A stretch of 64,000 nt of DNA from Gammaproteobacteria bacterium (GCA_029881255.1 JAOUMY010000010.1:7319-71318), one strand, 5' to 3'. Positions 41,989-58,678 are shown, counted from the stretch's first letter. Translations and numbers: made by a program. Notes: generated from the letters alone by a model not told the origin.

Positions 41989-42022
41989 CTAATTGACGGT
42001 CGCAAACTCTCAGCCACTAAGC

Positions 42023-42595
42023 ATGAGTCTATTTAACAAGCCCAGCACAAACAAACAGTTCGAAACACACATCAGACCGCATTTGGCTGATCTGTATCGG
42101 CTGGCCTTTCGTTTGACCGGTACGCGAGAGGATGCAGAAGACCTGGTGCAGGAGATGGTGCTCAAAGTCCATAAAGGACGTCACAAGCTACAAGAGCTTG
42201 ATAATCCCCGTACCTGGTTGGCGAAAGTAATGTATCGCATGTTTGTTGATGAATATCGCCGCGCGCAACGGCAGCCCGTACACAGTCTTGAGCAAGATGT
42301 AGAAGAATCAGAAATCCAATCAGTTTCGGTAGTTGATGCCGAGGAGTTAATCCAGCAACGACAACTTGTCGAACTGGTTGGCCGAGCTATTCAAATGTTG
42401 AGCGACGAGCATCGCATATTGATACTGATGTTCGAAGTAGAAGGGTATTCGCTTGCTGAAATGCAAGAGATTCTTGAGCTACCTCTGGGTACGTTGAAAT
42501 CCAGATTACATCGCGCGCGTCATCGGTTGCGCGAAATATTAGAAATTCACGGAACCTTTTCTGAAGCGTCCACGTGTAAGGAGCAGAGGGTTTAA
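42023..42595 (+). CDS. ECF (group IV) RNA polymerase sigma factor
   Basis: Region 2 (…LADLYRLAFRLTGTREDAEDLVQEMVLKV…) and region 4 HTH (…LSDEHRILILMFEVEGYSLAEMQEILELPLGTLKSRLHRARHRLR…). ATG at 42023; track ORF starts at an upstream TTG (41993). Confidence 0.8.
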   Translation: MSLFNKPSTNKQFETHIRPHLADLYRLAFRLTGTREDAEDLVQEMVLKVHKGRHKLQELDNPRTWLAKVMYRMFVDEYRRAQRQPVHSLEQDVEESEIQSVSVVDAEELIQQRQLVELVGRAIQMLSDEHRILILMFEVEGYSLAEMQEILELPLGTLKSRLHRARHRLREILEIHGTFSEASTCKEQRV

Positions 42596-42597
42596 AA

Positions 42598-43281
42598 ATG
42601 AGCTGCGATTCAATCAAAGATGTGATTATCGACTATGTTGGCGGACAACTGGACAGCGATAACATGGTACGGATTGAAAATCATATTAGTGATTGTGCTC
42701 AGTGTCAGCAAAGGGTTTTGAGGGAACGCGAAATTCGTAGAGCCTTGAGTGAACAGCCGACCGATGCTCCAGATAGTGAGTTTTTCGACAGGATAATGGA
42801 TGACATTGTCCGCAGTTCTGGAGGGCACAAGCATTTTGGGTTTTGGAACGGATTTGCTACAGCAATAGCGGCAGCACTATTCGCCTGGACCGTATTTACA
42901 CCGGCAACCTTAGTCAATACGGAGAACAGCGAATTAACTCAAGCTGTTGTGACACTGAACGCGCAAGTCGATCAGTTGAAAAATGTTCGGATATCATTCG
43001 ACTCTCCAGCGGATTTTGAACAAGTCAGTATGTCCTTATCTCTACCAGATCATGTGGAACTGGTTGGGTATGCTGGCGAACGAGAACTAACGTGGACAAC
43101 GACAATAAGCAAAGGAATAAATATATTAACTTTACCTATTATGGTTAAACATGAAGGAAAAGGGGTGCTGTACGCCACTGTGAGTCGCGCAGGTAAAACA
43201 AAAGTGTTTACCATCAATCTCGATGCGACTGCCAGACAGGAGACATTAATCGATGTCTCGATTAAAAACTTCAGTGTTTGA
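42598..43281 (+). CDS. Zinc-binding (ZAS-type) anti-sigma factor, single-pass membrane protein
   Basis: Starts 3 nt after the sigma gene; HxxxCxxC motif (ENHISDCAQCQ); TM helix FATAIAAALFAWTVFTPA; ~130-aa periplasmic domain. Confidence 0.7.
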   Translation: MSCDSIKDVIIDYVGGQLDSDNMVRIENHISDCAQCQQRVLREREIRRALSEQPTDAPDSEFFDRIMDDIVRSSGGHKHFGFWNGFATAIAAALFAWTVFTPATLVNTENSELTQAVVTLNAQVDQLKNVRISFDSPADFEQVSMSLSLPDHVELVGYAGERELTWTTTISKGINILTLPIMVKHEGKGVLYATVSRAGKTKVFTINLDATARQETLIDVSIKNFSV

Positions 43282-43300
43282 AAGTTACAGGGGAAGACAC

Positions 43301-44218
43301 ATGATGAAGCACACTAATTTAAATACTTTTTTCTTTGCGATGATAGGCGCGTTTTTTCTGAGTCCGGTTTCGGCGCTGGAGACGGCAGATGTCGAAGAGA
43401 TCAGCGTAAGCGTAATCGAAAGCGCTCAAGATGGAATTAAAGAATTCCGTGAACTTGCATTGCCTGCACGAGCATCGACTAGTGCTACTGAACATGCCAA
43501 AGGTTTGGAAAAAGCCAATGATGTGCGCACACGCAATGCGGAAAGATTCAACAGTCGAACAGACGACATGGAAGATGGTGTTGATACTGCGGCGACTCAG
43601 GCTGAAGAACGTAAAGAGGCGGCTATGGCAAAAGCCGCAGCAGCAAAAGCTGCCGGATTGGCAAAGGCTGAAGCAGCAAAAAATCGTGCTGAAGAACAAC
43701 GTGTCCGCGGTCAGGAGCGTGCTGAATTGGCGAAGGAACAGGCAGCTGAAGGTAGAGAGCTTGGTCAGGCCCGCGCCGAAGAGGCTCGACAGAAGCGTGA
43801 GGATGCTGAGGAGATCGCTACAGTCGTGAAGGAACAAGCAGAAACTGCCAAGGCGGCTGCACAGGATCATAAAGCTGCGGCGATGGAAATCGCAGAAACG
43901 GCCAAGGAGCAGGCTGGTGCGAACGCTGATGCAGCGAAGGACGCAGCAGAAGAGCATCGCGCAATAGCCAGTGAAGTTGCCGACCAGGCTCAAGCAATGG
44001 CAGACGATGCGAAAACCAATGCGGATGCTGCCAACGCAATTGCGGAAGAGGCCAAAGGAAATGCAGATGCGGCTAAAGCAAATGCTGACGCAGCCAAAGC
44101 CGCCGCTGGAGACGCACAGGCAAACGCAGATGCAGCCAAGGCCGCTGCGCAAGAAAAGAAAGAACAGGCTCAGACGCGCGCAGACAACGCAAAGAACAAT
44201 CGATTTTCGGCCAACTAG
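43301..44218 (+). CDS. Periplasmic Ala/Glu/Lys-rich low-complexity repeat protein (LEA-/apolipoprotein-like amphipathic helices)
   Basis: RBS AGGGGAAG then ATG 43301; signal MMKHTNLNTFFFAMIGAFFLSPVSA|LE; the rest is (A/K/E/D)-rich with degenerate repeats (…AKAAAAKAAGLAKAEAAKNRAEEQ…, …NADAAKANADAAKAAAGDAQANADAAKAAAQEKKEQ…). The long antisense ORF 43319-44152 is a repeat shadow. Confidence 0.65.
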   Translation: MMKHTNLNTFFFAMIGAFFLSPVSALETADVEEISVSVIESAQDGIKEFRELALPARASTSATEHAKGLEKANDVRTRNAERFNSRTDDMEDGVDTAATQAEERKEAAMAKAAAAKAAGLAKAEAAKNRAEEQRVRGQERAELAKEQAAEGRELGQARAEEARQKREDAEEIATVVKEQAETAKAAAQDHKAAAMEIAETAKEQAGANADAAKDAAEEHRAIASEVADQAQAMADDAKTNADAANAIAEEAKGNADAAKANADAAKAAAGDAQANADAAKAAAQEKKEQAQTRADNAKNNRFSAN

Positions 44219-44325: not shown

Positions 44326-45606
44326 ATGTATTTTAGGGCTAGCATGCTCGCCATGATGCTAACAGGGATGTTTGGGTTTGCCAGTGCCCAGGGGTCAGAA
44401 GACCCGGATTACTTCCGCCTGGGCATAGACGCGTTCAAAAACAAGCAATATGCGCAGGCGATCGAACTGATGCGACTTGCGCGTGAATCAGGTGTTGATG
44501 ACGAAATCTTGGCCTTCAATCTCGGCTCCGCCTTATACCGTTTGCAGGACTATCCGTCTGCGCTCGACGAATTCTCACGTATTTCGACAAACTCCCCTCT
44601 ATTTCCTCGCGTTGAATTCAATCTGGCGTTGATCGCTGTAAAACGTGACAAACTGGATGAGGCGCGTGAGATATTTGTGCGCCTTGAGTCGCAAAACTTA
44701 CCGACACTTTCAGCGATGGCGAGAGAAATGATAATGCGTATTGACGGGGAGCAGAGTCAGTCTGTAGGAACGCATTATCTTTATGTTAGCGTCAGTGGCG
44801 GTATTGAAGATAAGACGCTAGAACCGGAAACAGGCACGCCGGGAGAAGAGACTAATGTGTTCTCCAATATATTGCTACTCGGGTCGACATCCATACTGCC
44901 ATCCCTTATTCGTCACGCCAGTGCCGAAGTCACGATGTTTGGTTTGGTGAACATGCGGCATCAAGAATACGATATCGATATGTTAAATGTGGATCTGGAG
45001 AAGTCCTTTCGCTTTTCAAACGTGTCATTAAAAATTGCACCAGGCGTTGGCGCTATGGGGATGGGCTACAAGCCGTATAGTGGAGACTTGCATATTGGAA
45101 CGGAAGCGAAAATTTCGATCGCAGATATCCTTGATATAAAACCAAGGTATAGTTTTTCGCGTATACAGCACATGTCGGACAATTCTGCGGTTTCCGGGAC
45201 TCAACAAAAAGTCGGTATTCAAACACAATCCGATTTGGAAGAAATACGGCTGCAAGCAGATGTCGTACTTGAGTCCAATAATCGTAATGATACTTCAGAC
45301 ACAACATATCGTATCTATTCACCGAAACGTATTACGGCCCAAGTTGATATTCAATTATTTCGCGAAAGACGGGCATCGCCGAAGTTTATGTTGGAATGGC
45401 GCATAAGTGACTATCCAGCAGTCTCTCACGAGAATCAGCGCAGAGACCAGCGAATCAGGTTCAGGAATGTATCAAATATAAAAATAAATCAGTGGTTAAC
45501 TGCAGTTGCCGATGTCTCGTACACAGAGAATAGCTCATCTCCAAAGACTTCTTTCTCATATAATAGATGGGAGTTTGTTCTCGGGCTCGAGGGAATGTAT
45601 TACTGA
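44326..45606 (+). CDS. Outer-membrane protein: N-terminal periplasmic TPR region + C-terminal beta-barrel (architecture like Slam/DUF560 surface-lipoprotein translocators)
   Basis: Signal MYFRASMLAMMLTGMFGFASA|QGS; ~130 aa of TPR-like helices (…YAQAIELMRLARESG…LGSALYRLQDYPSALDEF…); then ~290 aa of alternating-hydrophobic beta pattern ending …WEFVLGLEGMYY (terminal aromatic). Confidence 0.45.
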   Translation: MYFRASMLAMMLTGMFGFASAQGSEDPDYFRLGIDAFKNKQYAQAIELMRLARESGVDDEILAFNLGSALYRLQDYPSALDEFSRISTNSPLFPRVEFNLALIAVKRDKLDEAREIFVRLESQNLPTLSAMAREMIMRIDGEQSQSVGTHYLYVSVSGGIEDKTLEPETGTPGEETNVFSNILLLGSTSILPSLIRHASAEVTMFGLVNMRHQEYDIDMLNVDLEKSFRFSNVSLKIAPGVGAMGMGYKPYSGDLHIGTEAKISIADILDIKPRYSFSRIQHMSDNSAVSGTQQKVGIQTQSDLEEIRLQADVVLESNNRNDTSDTTYRIYSPKRITAQVDIQLFRERRASPKFMLEWRISDYPAVSHENQRRDQRIRFRNVSNIKINQWLTAVADVSYTENSSSPKTSFSYNRWEFVLGLEGMYY

Positions 45607-45611
45607 TTATT

Positions 45612-46964
45612 CTATGGTTCGCCGTGTTTGGTTTCCACCTGGATACCTATTTTTTTCAGGAAAGGTGTCGGTAATATACCCCCAGCGCTGACGATAACGG
45701 CTTGGTTTGGAATTTCCATGACTTCGCCTTCCTGTTCGATAACAACAGAGTCTTCTTTTATTTCTTTCACATTGGAATTGAGAAGTACGCTTAACCGTCC
45801 TTCGGCTTCCTGGGCAGCGACTTTTTCACGATTTTTTTCTGCCGCGCGACTAAAGGCATTGCTACGATAGGAGAGGGTGACGGTGCTTCCCTGTTCTTCT
45901 GCGATACTCGTTGCGGCTTCCAGCGCACTGTTACCACCACCCACCACCAGCACATGCATTCCCTTGTACTGTTCCGGGTCAATGAGGTTATATACGACTT
46001 TCGATTGTTGTTCTCCCGCGACGCCGAGCTTCCGTGGTGAGCCGCGTCGACCAATGGCAAGTAGTACCGCCTTAGTTTCGTATTCACCGTTGGTGCTTTT
46101 TACCAAATAGCCGCCACCGGGCAGAGGTGTAATATTTTCCATGCGCTCCTGGTAGTGGATCTGGACACCGGTTCTTTGCTCTACAGCGTTCCAAAACTCG
46201 AGCAAGGCTTCTTTGTGAGTCTGGTTTATTTTAATCTTTCCGACAATGGGTAACTCCATCGGCTGAGTCATAACCAGTTTACCGCGAGGAAAGTTAAAAA
46301 CGGTTCCGCCAAGAGAGTCCTGCTCGATCGTCACGTAGCGTAAGCCAGATTCGAGTGCGCCCAGGCTTGCAGAAAATCCCGCTGGACCTGCCCCCACGAT
46401 GACGACATCAATTTCCGGTCCGCTAACCGAAGGTAAATATTGCTTGATGTAATCCATTGCTTCTCGCCCCTGAGTCACGGCATTACGTATTAGTCCCATG
46501 CCGCCAAGTTCTCCCGCGATAAACAGGCCTTGCATATTGGTTTCGAAATTGGGCTTGAGTGTTGGGATCTCTACACCGCGTTTTTCTGTGCCAAAAACCA
46601 GAGTGATTGCATCAAGAGGACAGGCAGCTTTACACGCGCCGTGCCCTATGCAATGTGTGGGATTAATTAGTTTCGCTTTTTCTTCGATTAGCCCTAGCAC
46701 GCCACCTTCAGGGCAGGCGGTAACACAGGCTCCACAGCCTATGCATACATTGGGATCAATTATGGGATGTAGAGATGCGGGTTCCGTCAAACCGGCTTCT
46801 TGAACCTTGATATAGGTTTCCAGGCTTTGCTCACTGACGGTGTCACGGCCACGTTTATAGATATAAAAGATGATCGCGATGGGAACGCCGTAAATAAGCG
46901 CATCAACAACATAGGTAGTGAAGGTGGTCCAGATTATGGTGATGAAATCGAAAATTATCTGCAT
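45612..46964 (-). CDS. Membrane-anchored 2x[4Fe-4S] ferredoxin domain fused to FAD/NAD(P)-binding oxidoreductase (thioredoxin-reductase-like fold)
   Basis: N-terminal TM segment (MQIIFDFITIIWTTFTTYVVDALIYGVPIAIIFYIY). Two CxxCxxCxxxCP motifs (CIGCGACVTACP, CIGHGACKAACP). Dinucleotide-binding motifs VVIVGAGPAGFSASL and VLVVGGGNSALEAATSIA. ATG at 46964; track's TTG start at 47018 has no RBS. Confidence 0.65.
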   Translation of the reverse strand: MQIIFDFITIIWTTFTTYVVDALIYGVPIAIIFYIYKRGRDTVSEQSLETYIKVQEAGLTEPASLHPIIDPNVCIGCGACVTACPEGGVLGLIEEKAKLINPTHCIGHGACKAACPLDAITLVFGTEKRGVEIPTLKPNFETNMQGLFIAGELGGMGLIRNAVTQGREAMDYIKQYLPSVSGPEIDVVIVGAGPAGFSASLGALESGLRYVTIEQDSLGGTVFNFPRGKLVMTQPMELPIVGKIKINQTHKEALLEFWNAVEQRTGVQIHYQERMENITPLPGGGYLVKSTNGEYETKAVLLAIGRRGSPRKLGVAGEQQSKVVYNLIDPEQYKGMHVLVVGGGNSALEAATSIAEEQGSTVTLSYRSNAFSRAAEKNREKVAAQEAEGRLSVLLNSNVKEIKEDSVVIEQEGEVMEIPNQAVIVSAGGILPTPFLKKIGIQVETKHGEP

Positions 46965-47043
46965 ATAGGGATCAATATATAACCATTTGGCTTGGACATG
47001 GCGGACAAAGAAGTCCAAATGGAGTAATAACTGGTGCGACCTT

Positions 47044-47060
47044 GCAAATCATATATTTGC
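47044..47060. promoter_or_regulatory. Perfect palindrome GCAAAT-CATAT-ATTTGC in the divergent promoter region of the cytochrome locus (candidate operator)
   Basis: 6-bp arms with 5-bp spacer at 47044-47060, inside a 360-bp AT-rich intergenic region between the divergent oxidoreductase gene and the membrane-protein/cytochrome genes. Confidence 0.3.
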
Positions 47061-47382
47061 GTATCCGAAAAATTCCTTATGTCATGCCCGTTGTAAATTG
47101 TATCGGCTTTTTTCATCATAGAATCAAATAAAAAAACAATAATCTGCGTTTGTGGGGAGTCACTAACCTGCGTTGCCATTGGATATTCAATCCAGTCTAA
47201 ATCGATTCAATGCAACGTGTTACCTGCTGGCTCATCTAACTCATTGTTTTTAGTGTTCTTAATAATAAAGACTGTTGGACTGCTTTTTCAATCGAAAAAC
47301 GGATTCAAATTATTTACCGGGGGACCGATAAGAATATTAACCTCCTAATAATAATGAAAAAATACGCGGGAAGGGGACAGAC

Positions 47383-48378
47383 ATGGGAATACTTACAGAC
47401 TTGCCTGAAGCAGGCAAGATTTTGGCGCGTCTGAAATTTATAAGACGTAACGCAGGCAAGTCCGGATCGGGGGAAGGGCGAGCGAGTAGTGTTAAAGAGG
47501 ATGCGATACCTGAAACCGTGATACAGGAAGACAACAAAAAGTTTGGCCGTGAGGCGAAAATCGTTACCACAATATTTGCGGTGCTTGTCGCCGTACTATT
47601 GGTAACGTGGTATAGCTGGCGGGATGAGTATCTGATGAATGCTGAGGATCTGATCTATAACATGGGTCTGATCGGTGGCATCATGATGCTGTTGCAATTC
47701 GTCTATTCCATGCGCAAGCGTGTCGACAAGATGCGCCGTTGGGGCAATCTCCGTTTTTGGTTTCTGTTTCATACCTTCATTGGTTTGTCAGCGCCAACCA
47801 TCATTGTTATCCACAGCCGATTTAGTATTGAGTCCGTCAATGGAGGCGTCGCGTTTTTCTCGATGTTGCTAGTGGTGATTAGCGGTATCGTTGGGCGCTA
47901 CCTCTACAGCCAGGTCAACTTTGATCTAAAAACGGCGCGTCAGGAATTGAAGGAATTGCATCAAACCGTACATGCGGGCGTGTTACAGCACCATCCTGAT
48001 CAACTTCGCGAAATCGAGAATATGCTGAAGCTGTTTATGCTGCACGCATTCGCTAATTCGCACGGTGTGATTCATGCATTTTCTCGGGCGTTTGGGGTGA
48101 GTATCCGGTCTCGACAGTTGTACTGGGCGCTGATTCAGATGCGCCAGATGTCTGCCCCTGGACGAAACGATGGTGCAACGATGGCAATGGACGGAACGCC
48201 AGTGTTTGACAGGGAAGAGCGACGATTACTCAGGATTTATCTCAAGTCGCTGACAAAACTGGCCCGTTACAATGCTTTTAAACATCTGTTTAGTCTGTGG
48301 CGTATCGGACACGTGCCCGTCATCTATTTACTATTGATTACTGGTTTGGCACATGTATTAGCCGTGCACATGTATTGA
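47383..48378 (+). CDS. Integral membrane protein (5 TM), conserved His residues in TM3 and TM5; candidate b-type cytochrome/quinone-interacting subunit
   Basis: RBS GGGAAGGGGA before ATG. TM helices IVTTIFAVLVAVLLVTWY, LIYNMGLIGGIMMLLQFVY, FWFLFHTFIGLSAPTIIVIH, VAFFSMLLVVISGIVGRYLY, HVPVIYLLLITGLAHVLAVHMY. No Pfam-level assignment possible by eye. Confidence 0.5.
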   Translation: MGILTDLPEAGKILARLKFIRRNAGKSGSGEGRASSVKEDAIPETVIQEDNKKFGREAKIVTTIFAVLVAVLLVTWYSWRDEYLMNAEDLIYNMGLIGGIMMLLQFVYSMRKRVDKMRRWGNLRFWFLFHTFIGLSAPTIIVIHSRFSIESVNGGVAFFSMLLVVISGIVGRYLYSQVNFDLKTARQELKELHQTVHAGVLQHHPDQLREIENMLKLFMLHAFANSHGVIHAFSRAFGVSIRSRQLYWALIQMRQMSAPGRNDGATMAMDGTPVFDREERRLLRIYLKSLTKLARYNAFKHLFSLWRIGHVPVIYLLLITGLAHVLAVHMY

Positions 48379-48391
48379 ACAGGAGACATTA

Positions 48392-49966
48392 TTGGGGCTT
48401 GCGCGTTATTACGGGATTCTGGCGTTAATGTTTACTCTCTTTACATGGCATGGTCAGGCAATGGCCGGTCCAATGGACCGCTTCGAACGCATGGTTATGC
48501 CGGGTAAACTGAGTACGGGGCACGTCAAGTACGAAAAAGACTGCAACAACTGCCATAAACCTTTCGAAAAAGGGGCGCAAAGCGACCTCTGTCTTGATTG
48601 CCACAAGAAGGTCAATAAAGACGTTGTTGATAAAAAGGGTTTTCATGGTCGCGTCCCCAATATCGATACCCGAAAATGTAGTGATTGTCATAAAGAACAT
48701 CGTGGCAGGGATGCCGACATCGTAGCGTTTGATCGCGATACCTTCGATCATGATCGTTCAGACTTTAAGTTAAAAGGTTCTCACACCCGTTTAGGTTGTG
48801 TGAATTGCCATGATCCTAAAACGAAATACCGGGATGCAGGACAGGGATGTGTAGATTGTCATAAGACTGACGATGCCCACGAAAAGCGCTTGGGCGAAAA
48901 ATGCGGCAATTGTCATATTGAAACCGTTTGGGGTGAAGCGCATTACGATCACGACAAAACCAAATTCAAACTGGAGGCAAATCACAAACATGTTGCCTGT
49001 ATCGACTGCCATCCCAACCAGCGATACGAAGAAACACCGAAGGGTTGTTACACATGTCACCAGCTACGCGATGTCCATGAAGGGAATAATGGTAAGAAGT
49101 GTGAGTCCTGCCATAATGCCTATTTCTGGAACGAGATCAAATTTGATCACAATAAAGATACCAAGTATGAACTCGAAGGACGGCATGTTACTGTCGATTG
49201 CCAGTCATGTCATCGCGGCGACGTTTACAAGAAAATTGGCAAGGAGTGTATTAAGTGCCATAAGAAAGAGGATGCCCATCGGGGGTTGTTTGGCGAAAAG
49301 TGCCATGATTGCCATATTTCTCGCTCCTGGTCTAGAGCGACCTTTAATCACAATAAAGACACCAAGTTTGAATTGATTGGTGCACATCGTAAGGTTGATT
49401 GCGTCGCGTGTCATCGTGCGGACGTTTATGCCGATTTGAAAAAAGATTGCTATGCCTGTCACCGTAAGAATGATGTGCACGAAGGGCAGGAAGGAAAGGA
49501 TTGTAAGCATTGTCACAATGAAAAGGGTTGGACTAGTGAAGTGTTTTTCGATCATGATCTGACACGTTTCCCACTGCTAGACAGTCATGCGGTAACTGCA
49601 TGCGAGGAATGTCATTTAACGCCCGCGTTTAAGGATACCGATACCCAATGTTTTTCATGCCACAAAAAGGATGATGAAAAAATACACAAGTTGCGTTTGG
49701 GTGAGAACTGTAGTCTGTGTCATAACTCTAATGACTGGAAGAAATGGTTTTTTGATCACGACAAACAAACAGATTATAAATTGACAGGCGGGCACAAAGG
49801 GCTGGATTGTCATGCCTGTCATACCAAACCTGTAAAGAAAGAAATCAAGCTGAGTGATAAGTGCGTGGATTGTCATGAGCAGGATGACTACCACCACGGA
49901 GCCTTTGGTCGTGAATGCGCCAGATGCCACATAACAGAATCCTTTAAGAAAGTGATTATGAATTGA
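48392..49966 (+). CDS. Periplasmic multiheme cytochrome c, 21 CxxCH motifs arranged as seven tandem c7-type triheme modules
   Basis: Signal MGLARYYGILALMFTLFTWHGQAMA|GP. 21 CxxCH counted. Recurrent module FDH(D/N)K(T/D)xF(K/E)LxGxHxxVxCxxCH … CxxCH…D(A/V)H…G…CxxCH resembles Geobacter PpcA/c7 and the GSU1996-type c7 polymer. Confidence 0.85.
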   Translation: MGLARYYGILALMFTLFTWHGQAMAGPMDRFERMVMPGKLSTGHVKYEKDCNNCHKPFEKGAQSDLCLDCHKKVNKDVVDKKGFHGRVPNIDTRKCSDCHKEHRGRDADIVAFDRDTFDHDRSDFKLKGSHTRLGCVNCHDPKTKYRDAGQGCVDCHKTDDAHEKRLGEKCGNCHIETVWGEAHYDHDKTKFKLEANHKHVACIDCHPNQRYEETPKGCYTCHQLRDVHEGNNGKKCESCHNAYFWNEIKFDHNKDTKYELEGRHVTVDCQSCHRGDVYKKIGKECIKCHKKEDAHRGLFGEKCHDCHISRSWSRATFNHNKDTKFELIGAHRKVDCVACHRADVYADLKKDCYACHRKNDVHEGQEGKDCKHCHNEKGWTSEVFFDHDLTRFPLLDSHAVTACEECHLTPAFKDTDTQCFSCHKKDDEKIHKLRLGENCSLCHNSNDWKKWFFDHDKQTDYKLTGGHKGLDCHACHTKPVKKEIKLSDKCVDCHEQDDYHHGAFGRECARCHITESFKKVIMN

Positions 49967-52242
49967 TGTTGTCGATACGGAAAATTTATATCGTCATGTG
50001 TGTATTGCTTGCTGGACTGGGTCCAGTGCCAGTTTACGCAAGTACGATATTGACATCGGTGGATTACTCAAGTGACGAAAACTCCATCTATATCAAAGCG
50101 AATTTTGGCGACATCGTGAACTATGAAAAACACTTTCCGCGCAGCCGTGGGAAAATAATTCAAATTCAGATCAGCATGCCAGGTAAGGTTTTTACTGAAA
50201 CACAATTAAAGCGTCGAGAAACCATTGAGCCGGATGAAAATGCACCATCGGTGATACGTGACATCATATACGAAGGAAACGTTAGAGGTGGTCCGTATCT
50301 GGTTTTACGGTTTTCCTCTGTGGTGACGTTTAAACTCGACGAAAGCAAGGGCTCCAAGGTATTGACGGTAACAATTGATCGCAAAGAGCTCGAGGCGTTA
50401 CAGACGCCAGCTGTAACACAGCAGCCAAGCACGGATGTTAGTGAAGAAGAAAGTCGTGCAACCAGTCTAATGGATCAGGGGCGCAGAGCCTTAACTATGG
50501 GACAGAACAGTGAAGCCATTCTTTTCTTCAGTGACATACTGGGCATGCCGGAAAGTCGTTTTACGCAGGATGCCCGTGAGTATCTTGGATTGGCGCGTGA
50601 GCGAAATGGGCAATTGGATCTCGCAAAAAAGGAATATGAAGCCTATCTCAAAAGTTACGAAAAGAGTCCAAAGGCTAACACCGTCAGGCAGCGCTTGATG
50701 ACGCTAGAGGCGCGTATCGTACAGATGGAACGCCGGCTGAAGGACGGTAAGCGAACCGGAACCACTTCAGTTGCTGCGGCTAGACCTGCAGATTTATTTG
50801 GCCGCGTGGCTATTCAATCGTATAACGCAGGGCTGCGAAAAGAGGGTGAATCAACACCCGATTACGCTCAAGGGCGTATTCTGGCATTTACCGATCTCAA
50901 TCAGCGTTGGCGTGACAAGGACAAAGATGCGCGACTTAGTTTTAGCGGAACCATGGATTACGATCTAATCCGTTCTCGTTCCTCGTCAACAACATTGCAG
51001 GACACAGAAAAGCCCCGATACGAAGCACGTATACGCTCCCTATTCGGTGAATACAAAGGGCGAACAAATAATATACACGGCAGTTTCGGGCGTCAGTCTG
51101 TTAACAGTGGTGGTGTACTCGGTCGTTTCGACGGCGCGATGTTGGGGTATCAACTCAAGAATAAACTATCCGTTTATGGTGTTGTCGGTTTGCCGGTCGA
51201 CTATGAAGACAATCTCACCCCGCAAACCAATAAGCCCATGTTCGGCGGACGCCTAGACGTCAATGAGATCGCTAAGTATTGGAAGGCGTCGGTCTACGGT
51301 ATTCAGCAACAAGTTGATGGTATTCTCGAAAGACGGGCCGTCGGTGGAGATTTGCGCTATTTCTTCGAGAACAAGGTTTTTTACTCGCTGGTGGATTACG
51401 ATGCTTCATATGGAGTCTGGAATTTTCTCACTGGGCACTATGGCTGGCAGGTGAACAAGCGCCTGAAACTGGATGTGCATGCAGACCGGCGTCGTTCTCC
51501 TGTGATGTTGACAAGCAATGCGTTGCGTCGGCTTTCGGTTTTAACCAGTGCTTCAGATAAGAATAAAGCCATGGGAGAACTAGATATATCCGACGAGGCT
51601 GTATTCAACAGACTGACCAATGAGTCAACAATTAAAGATCTTCTAGACGCCAAAGTTTCCGAAGCGACTATCCGACAACTGGCGCTTGATCAAACCGGAG
51701 AATCGTCGTTATATACGGTAGGCATGAACTACGAACTTCGCAAAGATATCAGCCTTATCGCAAATCTCACTATATCAAGTTATGAGGCTGGTAAAGCGCA
51801 AGATATAGATGCTACTGAGGAAATGCCTGAGGAACCCGATCCTAAAGCGATCATTGAATCCCCGTTTTTAAAGGGCGATGTTGATATGATAGGTTCTGTC
51901 CAATTGGTGCGGCGCAATATGTACCGCGAGCGGGACGTCGTGCTTGCCGGATTGAGTTTTTCCATTAACGAACGCAATAAGCGTTATACCGGTAATGTCG
52001 CATTGCGCACACCTTATAAAGAAAAGTGGTGGTTGGATTTGCGTGGACGGGCGATCTATTCAGACAACATTGAACATGGTACTCAGGCGCTTAAGGTCTC
52101 GCCCACGGCGCGTACAGAATACCGCTATGACCGCCGCCTGACCTTTGAGTTGGAGGTGGGGGCGGACTATACCCGATCTACCGGTGCTAACGAGGATTTG
52201 TTTTGGTTTTTTGGCAATGCCGGCTTTCGCTACATGTTCTAA
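49966..52242 (+). CDS. Large outer-membrane beta-barrel (porin component of a porin-cytochrome conduit, MtrB/PioB-like role) with N-terminal soluble domain and TPR-like segment
   Basis: ATG overlaps cytochrome stop (TGATG). Signal MLSIRKIYIVMCVLLAGLGPVPVYA|ST. An N-terminal ~110-aa domain; an alpha-helical TPR-like stretch (…EAILFFSDILGMPESRFTQDAREYLGLARERNGQLDLAKKEYEAYLKSY…); then >450 aa of amphipathic beta-strand pattern ending …FGNAGFRYMF (C-terminal Phe). Confidence 0.6.
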   Translation: MLSIRKIYIVMCVLLAGLGPVPVYASTILTSVDYSSDENSIYIKANFGDIVNYEKHFPRSRGKIIQIQISMPGKVFTETQLKRRETIEPDENAPSVIRDIIYEGNVRGGPYLVLRFSSVVTFKLDESKGSKVLTVTIDRKELEALQTPAVTQQPSTDVSEEESRATSLMDQGRRALTMGQNSEAILFFSDILGMPESRFTQDAREYLGLARERNGQLDLAKKEYEAYLKSYEKSPKANTVRQRLMTLEARIVQMERRLKDGKRTGTTSVAAARPADLFGRVAIQSYNAGLRKEGESTPDYAQGRILAFTDLNQRWRDKDKDARLSFSGTMDYDLIRSRSSSTTLQDTEKPRYEARIRSLFGEYKGRTNNIHGSFGRQSVNSGGVLGRFDGAMLGYQLKNKLSVYGVVGLPVDYEDNLTPQTNKPMFGGRLDVNEIAKYWKASVYGIQQQVDGILERRAVGGDLRYFFENKVFYSLVDYDASYGVWNFLTGHYGWQVNKRLKLDVHADRRRSPVMLTSNALRRLSVLTSASDKNKAMGELDISDEAVFNRLTNESTIKDLLDAKVSEATIRQLALDQTGESSLYTVGMNYELRKDISLIANLTISSYEAGKAQDIDATEEMPEEPDPKAIIESPFLKGDVDMIGSVQLVRRNMYRERDVVLAGLSFSINERNKRYTGNVALRTPYKEKWWLDLRGRAIYSDNIEHGTQALKVSPTARTEYRYDRRLTFELEVGADYTRSTGANEDLFWFFGNAGFRYMF

Positions 52243-52949: not shown

Positions 52950-55900
52950 ATGGGGAAGGGGACGACTTTGTTCACCGAATTGGTGAAGCGCCCGCATTTC
53001 GGCTTTGCGCTTTACCCGCCTTTAGGCTTTATTTTTCTCCGAAAACTGTTAGTGGCAGTTGCAATGCCTGTTTTTTTGGCCTTGCTTATGTCGCTTGCTC
53101 CAGGCGTTGTATCGGCCGACGAAATCGTTGTTCCTGCGGATTTTGACCACAATGCCACTGGCTTTCCACTACAAGGCCAGCATGAACGCATCCGCTGCGA
53201 ATTTTGCCATAGAAACGAAGTTTTCCGCGGCACGCCAGTCAAATGCGATGCGTGCCATAACGATATCATCGCCCCCGGAAAACACGCCAAGCACATCCCT
53301 ACGCTGGAGCAATGTAGCGACTGCCATGTGCCCTCGGGGTTTGATATCTCCGCGCGCATGGATCACTCCCGTATTACGCGGCCTTGTGGCGCCTGCCACA
53401 ACGGCAATCTTGCCCAAGGTAAAACCGTCAATCATATACCCACCAATGAAACCTGTGATACCTGCCATACCACAGGCATTGCATGGAGCCCAAGTCTGTT
53501 CGATCACGTTGGTATTGTTGATGGGTGTCTGTTATGTCACAACAGCGTAAATGCGCGCGGCAAAGGCATGGGCCACATACTGGTGCAGGATGAATGTCAG
53601 GCCTGTCACACGACGCAGTTGTGGAGTGTGCCGTCCAATAGCGTCAATCATAACTTTGTAATCGGAAGCTGTGAGAGCTGTCATAACGGTGCCGTTGCCT
53701 CAGGAAAACCGGCTACGCATATCCCAACCACAGATTCCTGTGATACTTGCCACAAAGACATCGGCCGTAGTTGGCATAGTCAGGCAGGCTTTACAGAATT
53801 GCATGCGATGTTAACCGAAGGATGTCCCTTGTGTCATACCGGGGTTAGCGCGCGCGGAAAAACTATTGATCACATATTGTCGAGCGAACGCTGTGAGTCG
53901 TGTCATACCCCCACCAGTAGTTCATTTTTGGTGTTGCGTAATCCCAAACCAGACCACGCAGAAATCGTAGGGAGCTGCGTCAACTGTCATAACAACAGTC
54001 GCTCGGTTGGTAAGAATATCACTCACATCAACAGTACGAATCAATGTCAAGCCTGCCACGAAATCGTGACTTTCAGCATTGTTCCGAAAGTGGATCACAA
54101 TGAAGTCCTGGGAGTGTGCGGTGCTTGCCATAATAACGTGATTGCAACCGGTAAGGGGCCGAACCACATAGCGACACAAGAGGCGTGTGATGTATGCCAT
54201 GCAACCACGGCCTGGTTACCTACACAGTTCGATCACTCAAATTTTGATACCAGTAATTGCCAGAGTTGTCACAATGGCTTCCAGGCTACGGGCAAACAAA
54301 CGGGACACATCGCATCGACAGAAAAATGCGATGCCTGCCATACCACAGGTGTGTCGTGGACGGTATTGTTAGTAGATCACACGCAGACGCTTGGTGATAC
54401 CTGCGAGACGTGTCACAACAATGTTCTCGCTCGTGGTAAAGGACCTACGCATATCATTACGCAACAGGACTGCGGAATATGTCACACCCCCAACACTCCC
54501 TGGTTACAGAATGCGTTTGATCACCAGGGCGTAAGTGGTAATTGCGCGACATGTCATAACGGCTTGCTTGCTCGCGGCAAGTCACAGTCACACATATCGT
54601 CAACGGATGTGTGTGAAGCGTGTCATGCAATTGGAAACTGGGCCCCGTTGACGGTGGATCATACAGAAGTTGTAGGTGGGTGTGTCAATTGTCACAACGG
54701 CGCAATATCCACTGGAAAAAATAACGGACATATCAGTACCAGTAATGAATGTGGCGCTTGCCATAGTACGACGCAATGGAAACCTGCCGTACGCGTTGAT
54801 CACAATGAGGTGCAGGGAAAATGCGAAAGCTGTCACAATGGAAAAGTGTCACAGGGTAAAGATCTGCAGCACATCCTTTCCACAGGTGAATGTAACGCGT
54901 GTCACAATACTACGCAGTGGACTCCCGCCATTACTGTTGATCATCATGAGGTGATTGGCGAATGTGCCACGTGTCACAATGGCACGATTGCGCGAGGAAA
55001 GGGGGCGCAACATGTGCCCACGACTGAAAATTGTTCCGCATGTCACTCGACTACATTGTGGCAGCCAGTCACCAAGGTCGACCACTCTGAAATCGCTGAA
55101 AGCACAAGTTGCTTTGAATGTCACAACGGTGTATTGGCTCAAGGTAAATCCACGCTGCATATCGCTTCAACAAATGCTTGCGAAGCGTGTCACCTGGTCG
55201 CCGCGTGGATGCCTGCAAAATTTGTCGATCATAATGAGGTTTTGGGCAATTGTGTTACTTGTCACAACGGTGTTGTGACTAGAGGAAAATCTGCGTACCA
55301 CGTGAAAAGCACTGATGACTGTGACGGATGCCATAGCGTTACGGAGTGGTCGCCTGCAAAATTTGTCGATCATGAATTCATTCTTGGAACATGTGACGTT
55401 TGTCATAATGGCAGCATTGCAAGAGGCAAAGGTACTCTCCACTTTAATACGTCGAATACGTGCGAAGCCTGTCATTCAGTTACGCTTTGGACGCCAGTGA
55501 TTACAGTGGATCATAGTCAGGTGATTGGAAGTTGTTTTTCCTGCCACAACAACAATCCTGTACCTGGCAAAAGCAGACTACATATTGCGACCACTGATCT
55601 TTGCGAGGCCTGTCATAACACCACATCGTGGACGCCGGCAACAACAGTGGATCACAGTGAAGTTATTGGTGAATGCCAGAGCTGTCACGGACAGGGAGGG
55701 CGCGCCGCGGGTAAGAATCCTGGACACATGCAAACGACAGATGTGTGTGGAGCGTGTCATTTCACAACAGCATGGAAGCCAGTAGTGAGTGTCGATCACA
55801 AACAAGTTCTGGGGGAGTGCGAGACTTGCCACAATGGAGATATTGCCATTGGAAAAAATCCTGCGACGCATATTCTATCTTCCGATCAGTGTTCTGCCTG

Positions 55901-56498
55901 TCATATCACCAGTACCTGGATAACCATACGTGTCGATCATACGCAGGTCTTGGGGGCATGTGTTGATTGCCACAATATGCCTGTGCAACATATCAATACC
56001 ACCAATCTGTGCGTTGAATGTCACTCCACGACACGTTGGAGTCCAGTCGTACTAGTGGATCATGCTCAGGTGAATGGCGTGTGTTCCTCCTGCCATAATT
56101 TACCCGCAGGACATATTGCGTCGACCAATGTTTGTGATGCCTGCCATAACACCACGCGCTGGCGGCCAACAGTGGCTGTAGATCATGCCCAGGTATTGGG
56201 ATCGTGTGCCGATTGCCATTTTCTGCCGGCCTTTCACATTACCGCCACGACAGCATGTGATGCTTGTCATAGAACCGAATCCTGGGTTCCTTTTACTGTT
56301 GATCACAATGAAGTATTGGGATCATGTGAAAGCTGTCACCCAGCACCCGGTGACCACCTCGCCGCTGGCGTAACAAACAATTGTCAGAACTGCCATTCAA
56401 CAACGACCTGGACAGGTGCTACTAGTCCACTTCCCGGGGCAGCTGGCGCGAGCGTGTCGGGAGTATCGGCAACTGCGGCTGGTGGTGGTCATATGTAA
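52950..56498 (+). CDS. Giant multiheme cytochrome c with 47 CxxCH motifs, built from ~27-aa tandem repeats (candidate extracellular/outer-surface electron conduit)
   Basis: 1182-aa ORF; signal peptide (alt. start ATG 53064: MPVFLALLMSLAPGVVSA|DE). 47 CxxCH counted by eye. Near-periodic unit C-x-x-C-H-(N/T)-x5-7-W-x-P-x4-(V/F)-D-H-x-(E/Q)-V-x-G-x-C-x-x-C-H-N-G-x2-A-x-G-K-x3-H-I-x-(T/S)-x3-C. No TM segment after the signal. Confidence 0.85.
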   Translation: MGKGTTLFTELVKRPHFGFALYPPLGFIFLRKLLVAVAMPVFLALLMSLAPGVVSADEIVVPADFDHNATGFPLQGQHERIRCEFCHRNEVFRGTPVKCDACHNDIIAPGKHAKHIPTLEQCSDCHVPSGFDISARMDHSRITRPCGACHNGNLAQGKTVNHIPTNETCDTCHTTGIAWSPSLFDHVGIVDGCLLCHNSVNARGKGMGHILVQDECQACHTTQLWSVPSNSVNHNFVIGSCESCHNGAVASGKPATHIPTTDSCDTCHKDIGRSWHSQAGFTELHAMLTEGCPLCHTGVSARGKTIDHILSSERCESCHTPTSSSFLVLRNPKPDHAEIVGSCVNCHNNSRSVGKNITHINSTNQCQACHEIVTFSIVPKVDHNEVLGVCGACHNNVIATGKGPNHIATQEACDVCHATTAWLPTQFDHSNFDTSNCQSCHNGFQATGKQTGHIASTEKCDACHTTGVSWTVLLVDHTQTLGDTCETCHNNVLARGKGPTHIITQQDCGICHTPNTPWLQNAFDHQGVSGNCATCHNGLLARGKSQSHISSTDVCEACHAIGNWAPLTVDHTEVVGGCVNCHNGAISTGKNNGHISTSNECGACHSTTQWKPAVRVDHNEVQGKCESCHNGKVSQGKDLQHILSTGECNACHNTTQWTPAITVDHHEVIGECATCHNGTIARGKGAQHVPTTENCSACHSTTLWQPVTKVDHSEIAESTSCFECHNGVLAQGKSTLHIASTNACEACHLVAAWMPAKFVDHNEVLGNCVTCHNGVVTRGKSAYHVKSTDDCDGCHSVTEWSPAKFVDHEFILGTCDVCHNGSIARGKGTLHFNTSNTCEACHSVTLWTPVITVDHSQVIGSCFSCHNNNPVPGKSRLHIATTDLCEACHNTTSWTPATTVDHSEVIGECQSCHGQGGRAAGKNPGHMQTTDVCGACHFTTAWKPVVSVDHKQVLGECETCHNGDIAIGKNPATHILSSDQCSACHITSTWITIRVDHTQVLGACVDCHNMPVQHINTTNLCVECHSTTRWSPVVLVDHAQVNGVCSSCHNLPAGHIASTNVCDACHNTTRWRPTVAVDHAQVLGSCADCHFLPAFHITATTACDACHRTESWVPFTVDHNEVLGSCESCHPAPGDHLAAGVTNNCQNCHSTTTWTGATSPLPGAAGASVSGVSATAAGGGHM

Positions 56499-56561: not shown

Positions 56562-57329
56562 ATGATGAGATCAGTTTGGCCTCAAGCAGTTATTGTGTTG
56601 ATTTTACTGAATGCTTGTGGCGTTGTCATAGATAGTTTGGGCACGGAAAATAAATCGAGTATCAGTGTTGATGAACAGGATATCGATTTGTACAGCCGCG
56701 TGGTAGTGTCAAAACTGGATATTGATCGTGACAGCTTCCTGGTAATTCAGGAAAGTGACGCGTTGGATCTCCCGTCGACTGTATTATTCAGCAAGCGTTA
56801 CCTGGCTGGGCTTTACGATGATGAGATCATCGAATTAGAGAAACCAGTTGAAGCGTCAACATCTGGTGATGGCCTGTTTTTGCTACATGCGAGTGTTTTT
56901 TCGGATACCAATGAAAACGGTGTTTTTGATGAAGGAGTAGACAAAGTAGCTCGTGACGCTTCGGGAAACGCCATAGGCACCAGTTTTCGGATGAAAGAAA
57001 CGGATTTGTCGGCCCATGTTGCTGTGAGTCTTTCTTCCAACGGAAATTCGGATTATGTCTGGACAGAAGTATCAGACGTTCTGGACGCATTTGAAATCAA
57101 CACAGATACGCTAGCGATTACGATGGAGGAAGGGCGTAAGTATCGGATTATAAATACGCAATCCACGAGTCACCCTCTGTCATTTCGAGATGCTAGCGGT
57201 AATATTATCTGGCGGCAAGGAGCTGGAAGTGAATTCGTAGTGGACGTGAGCGAAGAGTTTGCGCAAAATGTAGCGTCTTATCGCTGTGTAACGCATTTCC
57301 TAATGAAGGGCGGCGTAGGAATAAAATAA
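56562..57329 (+). CDS. Hypothetical lipoprotein downstream of the 47-heme cytochrome
   Basis: RBS AAGAGGGATGG; signal MMRSVWPQAVIVLILLNA|CGVV (lipobox LLNAC); acidic, beta-rich mature protein; ends …CVTHFLMKGGVGIK. Confidence 0.55.
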   Translation: MMRSVWPQAVIVLILLNACGVVIDSLGTENKSSISVDEQDIDLYSRVVVSKLDIDRDSFLVIQESDALDLPSTVLFSKRYLAGLYDDEIIELEKPVEASTSGDGLFLLHASVFSDTNENGVFDEGVDKVARDASGNAIGTSFRMKETDLSAHVAVSLSSNGNSDYVWTEVSDVLDAFEINTDTLAITMEEGRKYRIINTQSTSHPLSFRDASGNIIWRQGAGSEFVVDVSEEFAQNVASYRCVTHFLMKGGVGIK

Positions 57330-57532: not shown

Positions 57533-58678
57533 ATGAAGTCTTTTCTTTCTGGGATTCTAGCAGTTTTATCTCTGTCACCGGTCGCCTATGCCCAATCCGT
57601 TTCGATGCGTTATCTGGATCTGTTCATAGAGGGCGGCGCGACCGCTGGGTATTACTTTTCGGGCACAAGCTACGATAAAAATTTCAATACTTTCAGTTCG
57701 TATTCGCAATTTGAATTCAATCGCAATGCGGAAAATATTTTGTTAAATGATGCCTTGCTCGAGCTGCGCACAGGGCCATTACATGTCATGAATACTGAGT
57801 TCAGGATGGGGATGGGGCATTTGTCGAGGCTGACAATCCTGGATGGAAACGGCAATCTTGCGTTAGGGTCGCAGTACATACAGCAAGCACCTGTGAGCTC
57901 CACTTCCAGTCAGGACTTGAATGTCACGCGACGTCAACTCGAAGCGGAACTGATCCAATCTCAACGGGACGATGTCAATATCTATTACGCGCAGATGGCC
58001 ATATCTCCTGCGCCTTATGTGTTGTTGGAAGCGGGACGTTTGGCAACACATCTGGGTTATGAAGTCAGTCCCAGTTACACCAACTGGAATAGTGGTTTTG
58101 GCCTGGTGTGGATGAAGCAGCCGACGTACTACAATGGTTTTCGGTTGTCGTATGAGTTTGAAAAGTTGAATGCCTATCTTGAATTCAATCAGGACGACAG
58201 TTTCGCACGAACACCGGCGGTAGTTGCCGGTCTGTTCGGTAAATCGGCAGATATGCGCTATTCGGCGGCATTTTACTTTTCAGACTATGGGCATAATTTG
58301 TTTGACGCCATGGTGGAATCGGGATTTGATCGGGTAACGATTGCGGCGAATATCGATGTCCATATTGTTCAAGGCTCGGCGCAAGACATAAACAACCGTG
58401 TGAGTCTTGCCGCCGCCGTCTATTTAATCCCGCATATCATGCGATTTGATTTACCACTTCGATTGGAAATAATAAGAGATAGTCAGGCGGGTATGTATGA
58501 TATGAGTCGTGGATACTCTCTTACGTTTACCCCAACCGCACGGCTCGCAGAAAACTTTTTTGTACGTGCCGAGTTCGCTTTCATTTCCTCCTACAATGGT
58601 ATTTTTCGTGGTCTGCAAGACGAGCTCGTTTACTATGAAAAAACCGATTACTCCCTTCAGTTCGGCTACTACTTCTAA
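57533..58678 (+). CDS. Hypothetical outer-membrane beta-barrel protein (381 aa)
   Basis: RBS GGGGAG; signal MKSFLSGILAVLSLSPVAYA|QS; Tyr/Gly/Ser-rich alternating pattern throughout; C-terminus …DYSLQFGYYF (terminal Phe). Confidence 0.55.
   Translation: MKSFLSGILAVLSLSPVAYAQSVSMRYLDLFIEGGATAGYYFSGTSYDKNFNTFSSYSQFEFNRNAENILLNDALLELRTGPLHVMNTEFRMGMGHLSRLTILDGNGNLALGSQYIQQAPVSSTSSQDLNVTRRQLEAELIQSQRDDVNIYYAQMAISPAPYVLLEAGRLATHLGYEVSPSYTNWNSGFGLVWMKQPTYYNGFRLSYEFEKLNAYLEFNQDDSFARTPAVVAGLFGKSADMRYSAAFYFSDYGHNLFDAMVESGFDRVTIAANIDVHIVQGSAQDINNRVSLAAAVYLIPHIMRFDLPLRLEIIRDSQAGMYDMSRGYSLTFTPTARLAENFFVRAEFAFISSYNGIFRGLQDELVYYEKTDYSLQFGYYF

Follow-up and report, generated by a model that had tools for sequence, protein, structure and literature searches.

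A membrane-tethered iron-sulfur flavoprotein encoded beside the inner membrane protein of a PCC3-type porin-cytochrome cluster is a candidate for the inner-membrane end of the conduit

PCC3, as described by He et al. (2017; Front Microbiol 8:1584, PMC5566968), is a set of four genes that encode, besides a porin, two multihaem cytochromes, one extracellular and one periplasmic (the latter with a median of 21 haems), as well as a conserved hypothetical inner membrane protein (IMP). The published IMP has about 300 aa and five transmembrane (TM) segments, with the motif SGXXG on TM4 and the motif WX3HX13H on both TM3 and TM5, and was proposed to bind two b haems in the manner of ferric-reductase domains or cytochrome b and to be linked to quinones (PMC5566968). 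In Sideroxydans lithotrophicus ES-1, the PCC3 loci are Slit_0867-0870 and Slit_1446-1449. The present study concerns a locus of this kind in a 64,000-nucleotide stretch of DNA from a Gammaproteobacteria bacterium (GCA_029881255.1 JAOUMY010000010.1:7319-71318; the whole stretch is hereafter called the window), in which a minus-strand gene for a membrane-tethered Fe-S flavoprotein is divergent from the gene for a five-TM protein at the head of a multihaem cytochrome cluster. An original prediction, made from this DNA, had drawn attention to the two genes, and the claims it made about them were followed up here; both ORFs were recovered at the positions it gave. Because the flavoprotein gene adjoins the IMP gene in most of the PCC3 clusters examined, our results suggest that the conduit is connected to NAD(P)H in the cytoplasm, and not to quinones only.

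Judged by IMP motifs, protein size and gene context, all of which agree with the published description, the five-TM protein of the window and its cytochrome and porin cluster are the PCC3 system of He et al. (2017). The genes stand in the published order, with IMP followed by a periplasmic cytochrome of about 21 haems, the porin and a very large extracellular cytochrome, and exactly 21 CxxCH motifs were counted in the first of these cytochromes, the number of haems that the original prediction had assigned to it. Compared with loci of Sideroxydans, Gallionellaceae and Amphritea, the IMP and the 21-haem cytochrome of the window showed identities of 30-34% and 39-46%, respectively, and the porin was 26-28% identical over about 730-760 aa, with the Sideroxydans and Gallionellaceae loci only; the Amphritea locus (L053) carries the same pair of 21- and 63-haem cytochromes as described by He et al. 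No open reading frame (ORF) for a 4-haem NapC/CymA-like protein was found in the window, where the ORFs with at least four CxxCH motifs carry only 21, 47 and at least 11 of them, consistent with the earlier view that the system is not of the CymA/NapC type. Whereas four genes were published for PCC3, the locus considered here has a fifth, the Fe-S flavoprotein gene divergent from IMP, often together with a Sel1/ankyrin gene.

In the IMP of the window, five hydrophobic segments were found by the Kyte-Doolittle method, in agreement with the helices of the AlphaFold2 (AF2) model, and positive-inside counts point to an N-terminus in the cytoplasm and a C-terminus in the periplasm. Five of its 13 His residues were invariant in 28 homologues, which were 26-65% identical to the window protein; these are H130 and H144 on TM3, and H310, H324 and H329 on TM5, so that the H-x13-H spacing occurs on both segments. 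The divergent five-TM protein with conserved His on TM3 and TM5 was borne out, its His residues being spaced as in dihaem-b proteins, and the idea of a bis-His haem b in IMP is itself already in the literature as a hypothesis. W306 was also invariant in the 28 sequences, and members of the family always terminate a few residues past TM5, at the predicted periplasmic face. On this pattern of conservation, IMP most likely binds two b haems, with H130/H310 as the ligand pair on the cytoplasmic side and H144/H324 as the pair on the periplasmic side, H329 being nearby. Between TM4 and TM5 lies a loop of 135 residues (residues 167-301), with 19 Lys and Arg, that contains an insert of about 125 aa; the AF2 helices in this region (residues 152-199, 208-222, 229-251 and 277-304) form a helical bundle, and L215 is the sole nearly invariant residue.

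The IMP family comprises 3363 representatives at E <= 1e-3, and none of the Pfam or NCBIfam models matched it. No CxxCH motif occurs in IMP. The Foldseek search of the IMP model against PDB returned nothing at E < 1, the top matches being helical sensor domains and ABC transporters with a TM-score of at most 0.38, and the PDB sequence search with the IMP profile likewise gave nothing meaningful. With the ferric reductase domain PF01794, the window IMP had no match at E <= 0.01, and four of the 28 family members had sub-threshold matches, the best at 0.016. With PF01292, the cytochrome b561/hydrogenase cytochrome b family, six of the 28 members had sub-threshold matches, the best at 1.4e-4, although the unrelated Cation_ATPase_C scored similarly in 10 of the 28. 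The hhalign comparisons of the IMP family with E. coli MsrQ and E. coli HyaC gave probabilities of 0.1% and 0.3%, respectively. A transporter identity was also considered for IMP and rejected: a transporter fold with non-conserved His, named beforehand as evidence that would speak against the original prediction, was not seen, as neither the fold nor the family searches gave a transporter match and the conserved positions are mostly His, Trp and Gly within TM3-TM5. In the IMP homologues P0047, P0049-P0052, P0193, P0194, P0223, P0232 and P0268, the five-TM core is preceded by an N-terminal stretch of 170-400 residues with TPR, SPOR or no known domain.

The mechanical ORF of the flavoprotein extends over 45612-47018, with a TTG start and 468 aa, whereas the database gene call (P0070) and the homologue alignment agree on an ATG 18 codons further in, at 46964, as the start. 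The original prediction had described the product as a TM anchor joined to two 4Fe-4S motifs and to FAD and NAD(P) Rossmann motifs. The anchor, an Fe-S dicluster domain and the Rossmann domains were all recovered, Pfam giving matches to Fer4_10 (Fe-S dicluster; 4e-13), Pyr_redox_3 (4e-38) and Pyr_redox_2 (2e-24); of the two Fe-S motifs, however, only the first is canonical, and the second is His-substituted. There is no Lys or Arg ahead of the anchor helix and the sequence KRGRD stands behind it, so that an N-out/C-in orientation is predicted, with the catalytic domains on the cytoplasmic side. In the AF2 model (predicted local distance difference test, pLDDT, 82), a single long helix covers residues 2-56.

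The first Fe-S motif, CIGCGACVTACP, reads C74xxC77xxC80xxxC84P, with C77 replaced by Ser in some homologues, and the second, CIGHGACKAACP, reads C105xxH108xxC111xxxC115P, with an invariant His where the second Cys is expected, giving a total of seven Cys and one His. In the homologue alignment, C74, C80, C84, C105, H108, C111 and C115 were invariant and C77 was variable. By these ligand positions, each cluster may be either of the [3Fe-4S] type or a [4Fe-4S] cluster with a His ligand. The GxGxxG (VVIVGAGPAG) and GxGxxA (VVGGGNSALEAA) motifs were invariant among the homologues, and so was the sequence YR...FxR behind the latter, which resembles the NADPH 2'-phosphate site of thioredoxin reductase (TrxR; HRRxxxR). 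An FAD motif of the form ...T-x-x-G-x-F-x-A-G-D/E... normally ends TrxR and YpdA proteins. The equivalent FETNxxGxFIAGELGG...QGRxA motif of the flavoprotein, which was invariant in homologue alignments, lies instead ahead of the GxGxxG motif, and HMMER aligned residues 127-169 of the query, as a weak second domain (-0.1 and 3.3 bits), with residues 277-323 of YpdA. The sequence thus suggests a circular permutation of the flavoprotein domain, with the Fe-S domain at the junction.

The solved structures closest to residues ~186-445 of the flavoprotein are those of YpdA/Bdr, TrxR and TrxR-like ferredoxin-NADP+ reductases (FNRs), the best sequence match being 7a7b (3e-35) and the Foldseek value being 2e-19; with 3ab1, 5ygq, 2zbw and 6gar, Foldseek gave E values of about 1e-15 to 1e-16, and its matches include ferredoxin-NADP reductases and IruO. 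Two named enzymes were considered and rejected. A thioredoxin reductase (TIGR01292) is contradicted by the absence of CxxC and by a score of 81.7 bits against a cut-off of 343, and YpdA/Bdr (TIGR04018) by a score of 153.7 bits against a cut-off of 339.9 and by the GGGPCG motif, the Cys of which aligns with Ala in GAGPAG. All Cys residues of the flavoprotein lie at or before residue 115, and a role as a disulfide reductase is ruled out because the FAD/NAD(P)H domain is free of Cys. The predicted fold, with two Rossmann domains for FAD and NADPH and no CxxC, is that of TrxR-like FNRs; by elimination and by fold, the flavoprotein is most like an NAD(P)H:ferredoxin reductase to which an Fe-S domain has been fused.

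The conservation of the pairing was followed from both of its members. A flavoprotein-anchored scan of species-representative genomes found relatives at 592 or more places, of which 80, with 57-67% identity, were kept, and an IMP-anchored scan of metagenome contigs with the pattern [LIC]xHV[LVI][AV]VH[ML]Y found 544 relatives, of which 80 were kept. A divergent flavoprotein gene was present at 48 of the 56 metagenomic IMP loci with at least 1.2 kb of upstream sequence (~86%), the other eight having unrelated genes upstream, and IMP together with a cytochrome of 18-27 haems was found within 10 kb at 61 of the 80 flavoprotein loci. The co-conservation check that the original prediction had asked for thus tied both genes to the cytochrome/porin cluster. 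Where at least 2 kb of upstream sequence was available, IMP was directly adjacent to the flavoprotein gene and divergent from it in 48 of 70 loci, a median of 297 bp separating the two ORF frames, and no IMP was within reach in 15 of the 70, so that orthologs occurring apart from the cluster, the finding that had been set down in advance as contrary, make up only a minority.

The hosts of the flavoprotein loci include Gamma-, Beta- and Alphaproteobacteria, Deltaproteobacteria labelled Myxococcota and metagenome-assembled genomes of Gemmatimonadaceae. The same pairing was found around IMPs just 26-32% identical to that of the window, among them that of Thiogranum longum, when independent gene calls and precomputed Pfam assignments were used. 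Furthermore, no other gene of the cluster is as well conserved as that of the flavoprotein: in loci L002-L081 its identity to the window protein was 57-67%, compared with 28-34% for IMP, 25-31% for the porin and 30-49% for the 21-haem cytochrome. In 28 of 69 loci, the gene immediately behind that of the flavoprotein encodes a secreted Sel1+ankyrin protein of some 600-700 aa (e.g. L001 11328-13268; L165 4779-6551), and among the 80 flavoprotein loci Sel1 matches were present in 49 and Ank matches in 56; to our knowledge, bacteria seldom combine ankyrin repeats with a signal peptide. No 9-mer was common to four or more of 11 divergent intergenic regions (the window and ten related loci). In the accessible portion of the PCC3 literature, the cluster is always given as four genes and a flavoprotein goes unmentioned; the terms "ferredoxin" and "thioredoxin reductase" are absent from He et al. 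(2017) and from the Sideroxydans CL21 preprint, the lone occurrence of "FAD" in these two papers being unrelated, and the genes flanking the ES-1 PCC3 clusters (Slit_0871 and Slit_1445) are not listed in the supplement of the ES-1 transcriptome study. Within this literature, the flavoprotein thus appears to be new as a conserved fifth component of PCC3, the IMP half of the pair having been published already.

Based on these results, we propose that the flavoprotein and IMP would together make up the part of a PCC3-type porin-cytochrome conduit that lies at the inner membrane. The pair may work as a split chain, similar to an NADPH oxidase (NOX) or ferric reductase (FRE), that leads from NAD(P)H to the 47-haem cytochrome, a reading that we believe about as strongly as we doubt it. 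In such a chain, electrons would pass from NAD(P)H to FAD and the two Fe-S clusters, then to the inner and the outer haem b of IMP, and further through the 21-haem cytochrome and the porin to the 47-haem cytochrome; we infer from the features described above that the cofactors are bound, that the flavoprotein and IMP touch, which donor supplies the electrons and which way these travel. Positive-inside counts place the Fe-S/FAD domains and the 135-residue loop of IMP on the same, cytoplasmic side, and the flavoprotein begins with a short uncharged tail, predicted to be periplasmic, followed by an out-to-in helix. IMP (N-in, five TM, C-out) followed by the flavoprotein (N-out, one TM, cytoplasmic dehydrogenase) would thus reproduce the NOX layout of six TM helices plus a dehydrogenase, though this resemblance is to be taken as an analogy, because homology in sequence or fold was undetected. 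By a further, speculative analogy with the distal cluster of [NiFe] hydrogenases, the His-substituted cluster might be the exit cluster.

We favour an outward direction, with NAD(P)H as the source and an acceptor outside the cell, since redox gradient and membrane potential would both drive electrons that way. In S. lithotrophicus ES-1, expression of the PCC3 genes is lower on Fe(II) than on thiosulfate (ES-1 transcriptome study, PMC8788666), in keeping with a function different from Fe(II) oxidation. A more far-reaching version of the proposal, in which the pair is a quinone-independent trans-envelope split NADPH oxidase that, in diverse Proteobacteria and some other phyla, wires the pyridine-nucleotide pool straight to extracellular acceptors or partner cells, with IMP as a family of its own and PCC3 recast as an electron outlet and not an iron oxidase, is put forward tentatively, and we suspect that it claims too much.

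Several points weigh against the proposed chain. Homology of IMP to ferric-reductase or HyaC-type cytochromes b was undetected by Pfam, by hhalign (below 1%) and by Foldseek. The cytoplasmic insert of IMP is poorly conserved, and an obvious docking surface is not visible on it; moreover, a fusion of IMP with the flavoprotein was not found among the long IMP homologues, whose extensions are TPR, SPOR or unassigned and lack any redox domain. The flavoprotein is missing from the vicinity of IMP in about 14% of the IMP loci, as is IMP from that of the flavoprotein in about 21% of the flavoprotein loci, and the usual operon partner of the flavoprotein is the secreted Sel1/ankyrin protein, which could point to a role in biogenesis. 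Electron export driven by NAD(P)H dissipates the membrane potential, and its benefit to lithoautotrophs is not obvious. In addition, the IMP of PCC3 copy 2 rises in iron-oxidising cells (Sideroxydans CL21 preprint), and the link proposed by He et al. for IMP is to quinones (PMC5566968). Finally, the cofactors of the pair, its assembly into a complex and its use of NAD(P)H are all predicted only.

The first alternative starts from this proposed link to quinones. In the model published as a hypothesis by He et al. (2017; PMC5566968), IMP would be a dihaem cytochrome b that reacts with quinol or quinone, and the flavoprotein would be an accessory, either as a second, NAD(P)H-fed input or as a redox regulator of IMP. 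The eight of 56 IMP loci that have no flavoprotein nearby suggest that IMP may function alone. Dihaem-b membrane proteins with H-x13-H pairs, such as those of bc1, FdnI and HyaC, are commonly quinone-reactive. However, neither a quinone-site motif nor homology to quinone-reactive cytochromes b was detected in IMP, and the model leaves unexplained why the flavoprotein stands beside IMP in ~86% of loci across phyla and is more highly conserved than any other protein of the cluster. We consider this explanation unlikely.

Electrons might also run the other way, from an extracellular donor such as Fe(II) minerals, a cathode or reduced sulfur minerals through the 47- and 21-haem cytochromes and the haems of IMP to the flavoprotein, and from there to NAD(P)+ or a ferredoxin-like acceptor, supplying reductant for CO2 fixation. 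Lithoautotrophs are frequent among the hosts (Gallionellaceae/Sideroxydans, Thiodiazotropha, Sedimenticola and Thiogranum), uptake or oxidation is what the PCC3 literature assumes, and the rise of the copy 2 IMP in iron-oxidising CL21 cells agrees with such a direction. On bioenergetic grounds, however, an electron moving inward opposes the membrane potential, and the reduction of NAD(P)+ (-0.32 V) from Fe(II) lies at least a further 0.3 V uphill, with no coupling device evident. The fall of the ES-1 PCC3 genes on Fe(II), as reported in PMC8788666, speaks against it as well, and we regard electron uptake as quite improbable.

The conservation of the Sel1/ankyrin genes bears on a third explanation, in which the flavoprotein and IMP send electrons from NAD(P)H to the periplasm for the assembly or repair of the very large cytochromes, for example to keep haem iron reduced at attachment, and the Sel1/ankyrin protein is a periplasmic scaffold. 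The co-transcription of the flavoprotein gene with that of the secreted Sel1+ankyrin protein in 28 of 69 loci and the presence of Sel1 or Ank genes in 49-56 of the 80 loci argue for it, as does the persistence of the flavoprotein-Sel1/ankyrin pair where PCC3 genes are not adjacent. Fre-MsrQ-MsrP is a precedent for the delivery of reductant from cytoplasm to periplasm, yet general cytochrome c maturation systems already cover the need. IMP, by contrast, is the first gene of the cytochrome operon and matches a dihaem design of the respiratory type, and redox cysteines of the DsbD/CcdA type are present in neither protein, which makes a role in biogenesis or maintenance very unlikely.

That the flavoprotein is a housekeeping thioredoxin-reductase-like enzyme beside the cluster by chance is hardly credible: homologues are named "thioredoxin reductase" in databases and 15 of 70 loci have upstream neighbours of housekeeping type, e.g. 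hemA/prfA, ccmBC and sucC (N-termini read), but the divergent pairing is kept whichever member serves as the anchor, holds across phyla and extends to IMPs of 26-32% identity, and the protein lacks the TrxR CxxC and scores far under the YpdA and TrxR cut-offs.

The features of the locus are collected in Table 1.

Table 1. Features of the flavoprotein-IMP pair, the PCC3 cluster and the associated repeat proteins, in window coordinates
Feature	Coordinates	Strand	Basis and remarks
Membrane-tethered Fe-S flavoprotein, coding sequence	45612..46964	-	450 aa from ATG; identical to database protein P0070
Single N-terminal TM anchor, residues 17-35 (predicted)	46860..46916	-	Kyte-Doolittle scan and K/R counts
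Ferredoxin-type dicluster domain, CIGCGACVTACP + CIGHGACKAACP	46599..46769	-	Pfam Fer4 families, Cys positions
FETNxxGxFIAGELGG...QGRxA motif	46455..46553	-	Equivalent of the C-terminal FAD-binding motif of TrxR/YpdA, here before GxGxxG
FAD (GAGPAG) and NAD(P)H (GGGNSALEAA, YRSxxFSR) Rossmann domains	45630..46409	-	Pyr_redox_3 over 206-463 of the 468-aa ORF
Divergent intergenic region, 418 bp, AT-rich	46965..47382	.	Sequence reading
PCC3-type IMP, 5 TM, predicted dihaem b	47383..48378	+	331-aa ORF; identical to P0001; AF2 pLDDT 80.5
TM3, W126-x3-H130-x13-H144	47755..47814	+	H130 and H144 invariant; TM prediction
TM4, S167-G-I-V-G171-R172 (SGxxG)	47824..47907	+	G168, G171 and R172 invariant
Helical insert of ~125 aa between TM4 and TM5	47908..48285	+	Predicted cytoplasmic, poorly conserved
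TM5, W306-x3-H310-x13-H324 and H329	48286..48375	+	Residues invariant; chain end ...HVLAVHMY at periplasmic face
Periplasmic 21-haem cytochrome c, signal peptide, c7-type repeats	48392..49966	+	21 CxxCH, Pfam Cytochrome_C7
PCC3 porin-like outer-membrane protein, 759 aa, N-terminal TPR	49963..52242	+	Homology; weak TPR match
47-haem cytochrome c, 1182 aa, predicted extracellular	52950..56498	+	47 CxxCH; Pfam Cytochrome_C7, MtrC/MtrF domain II/IV
Sel1-repeat protein, 935 aa	39026..41833	+	Pfam Sel1 3e-77; phmmer match with the L001 Sel1+Ank protein
Ankyrin-repeat protein, 401 aa	37675..38880	-	Pfam Ank_2 1e-58

The Sel1 and ankyrin proteins of the window are encoded by separate genes 4-8 kb from the flavoprotein gene and are counterparts of the fused Sel1+ankyrin protein found elsewhere. 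Just upstream of the locus, three plus-strand genes encode an extracytoplasmic function (ECF) sigma factor (41993-42595), a zf-HC2 anti-sigma factor (42598-43281) and a repetitive 321-aa protein rich in Ala, Glu and Lys (43253-44218). This trio is not conserved in 160 related loci, the ECF gene being present in three of them and the other two genes in none; an ECF gene also stands beside the distant PCC3 locus L164. Convergent with the flavoprotein gene is a plus-strand gene (44326-45606) for a protein of 426 aa that starts with a signal peptide and has TPR repeats in its N-terminal part; its C-terminal half might, as a guess, be a beta-barrel; tblastn found it in 0 of the 160 related loci, and it is not similar to the Sel1+ankyrin protein. 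Directly after the 47-haem cytochrome follow plus-strand genes for a DUF7282 protein (56562-57329) and an OmpL-like beta-barrel porin (BBP2; 57533-58678), which may be extra outer-membrane parts of the conduit. A further multihaem cytochrome c with c7-type repeats and at least 11 CxxCH motifs (63064-63954, minus strand) runs off the end of the window and may belong to a second cytochrome locus.

PCC3 is widespread and has repeatedly been listed as a candidate iron oxidase. The flavoprotein offers a concrete inner-membrane mechanism for it and suggests that electrons may bypass the quinone pool. With 57-67% identity across phyla, the flavoprotein could furthermore serve as a sensitive marker for PCC3-type clusters. 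If the proposed chain is correct, it would represent a bacterial route of extracellular electron transfer organised like the NADPH oxidases of eukaryotes, and PCC3 genes would have to be read differently in symbionts and in organisms that cycle iron, sulfur and methane.

Among known systems, proteins of the NOX/FRE type cross the membrane six times, bind haem through pairs of His on the third and fifth helices, and carry a flavin dehydrogenase on the cytoplasmic side behind the sixth. The pair in the window is similar in that TM3 and TM5 of IMP each bear two His at i/i+14 and in its cytoplasmic flavin/NAD(P)H module behind an out-to-in helix, and the predicted path would resemble that of NOX/FRE proteins (PF01794) in leading across the membrane from NAD(P)H through flavin, inner haem and outer haem to an acceptor. 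IMP, however, has five helices, and a sixth is obtained only if the anchor of the flavoprotein is counted. The window system further differs in being split over two divergent genes, in a dehydrogenase that is TrxR-like and not FNR-like and carries two Fe-S clusters, and in an acceptor that would be a multihaem cytochrome instead of O2 or Fe(III).

In E. coli, the cytosolic NAD(P)H flavoenzyme Fre passes electrons to MsrQ (YedZ), a haem-b membrane protein, and from there to the periplasmic MsrP; msrQ is annotated as "membrane-bound flavocytochrome". The two-protein arrangement, with a cytoplasmic NAD(P)H flavoenzyme feeding a haem-b membrane protein, is like that predicted for the window pair, whereas Fre is soluble and has no Fe-S clusters, and the periplasmic partner is a molybdoenzyme and not a 21-haem wire. 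The Tmc and Hmc complexes of sulfate reducers consist of a periplasmic multihaem cytochrome c, a membrane cytochrome b and a cytoplasmic Fe-S protein, and possibly bypass quinones. Compared by description, they share with the window system, as predicted here, a haem-b subunit in the membrane that joins a multihaem cytochrome in the periplasm to an Fe-S protein in the cytoplasm, but in Tmc/Hmc this protein is an HdrD-like CCG subunit without a flavin/NAD(P)H domain, and a porin and an extracellular cytochrome are absent. For the flavoprotein itself, YpdA/Bdr and the TrxR-like FNRs (7a7b/7apr, 3ab1, 5ygq and 2zbw) have the same two-Rossmann FAD/NADPH architecture without the TrxR CxxC; unlike them, the flavoprotein has its C-terminal FAD motif permuted to the front, and a ferredoxin domain and a TM anchor are fused on.

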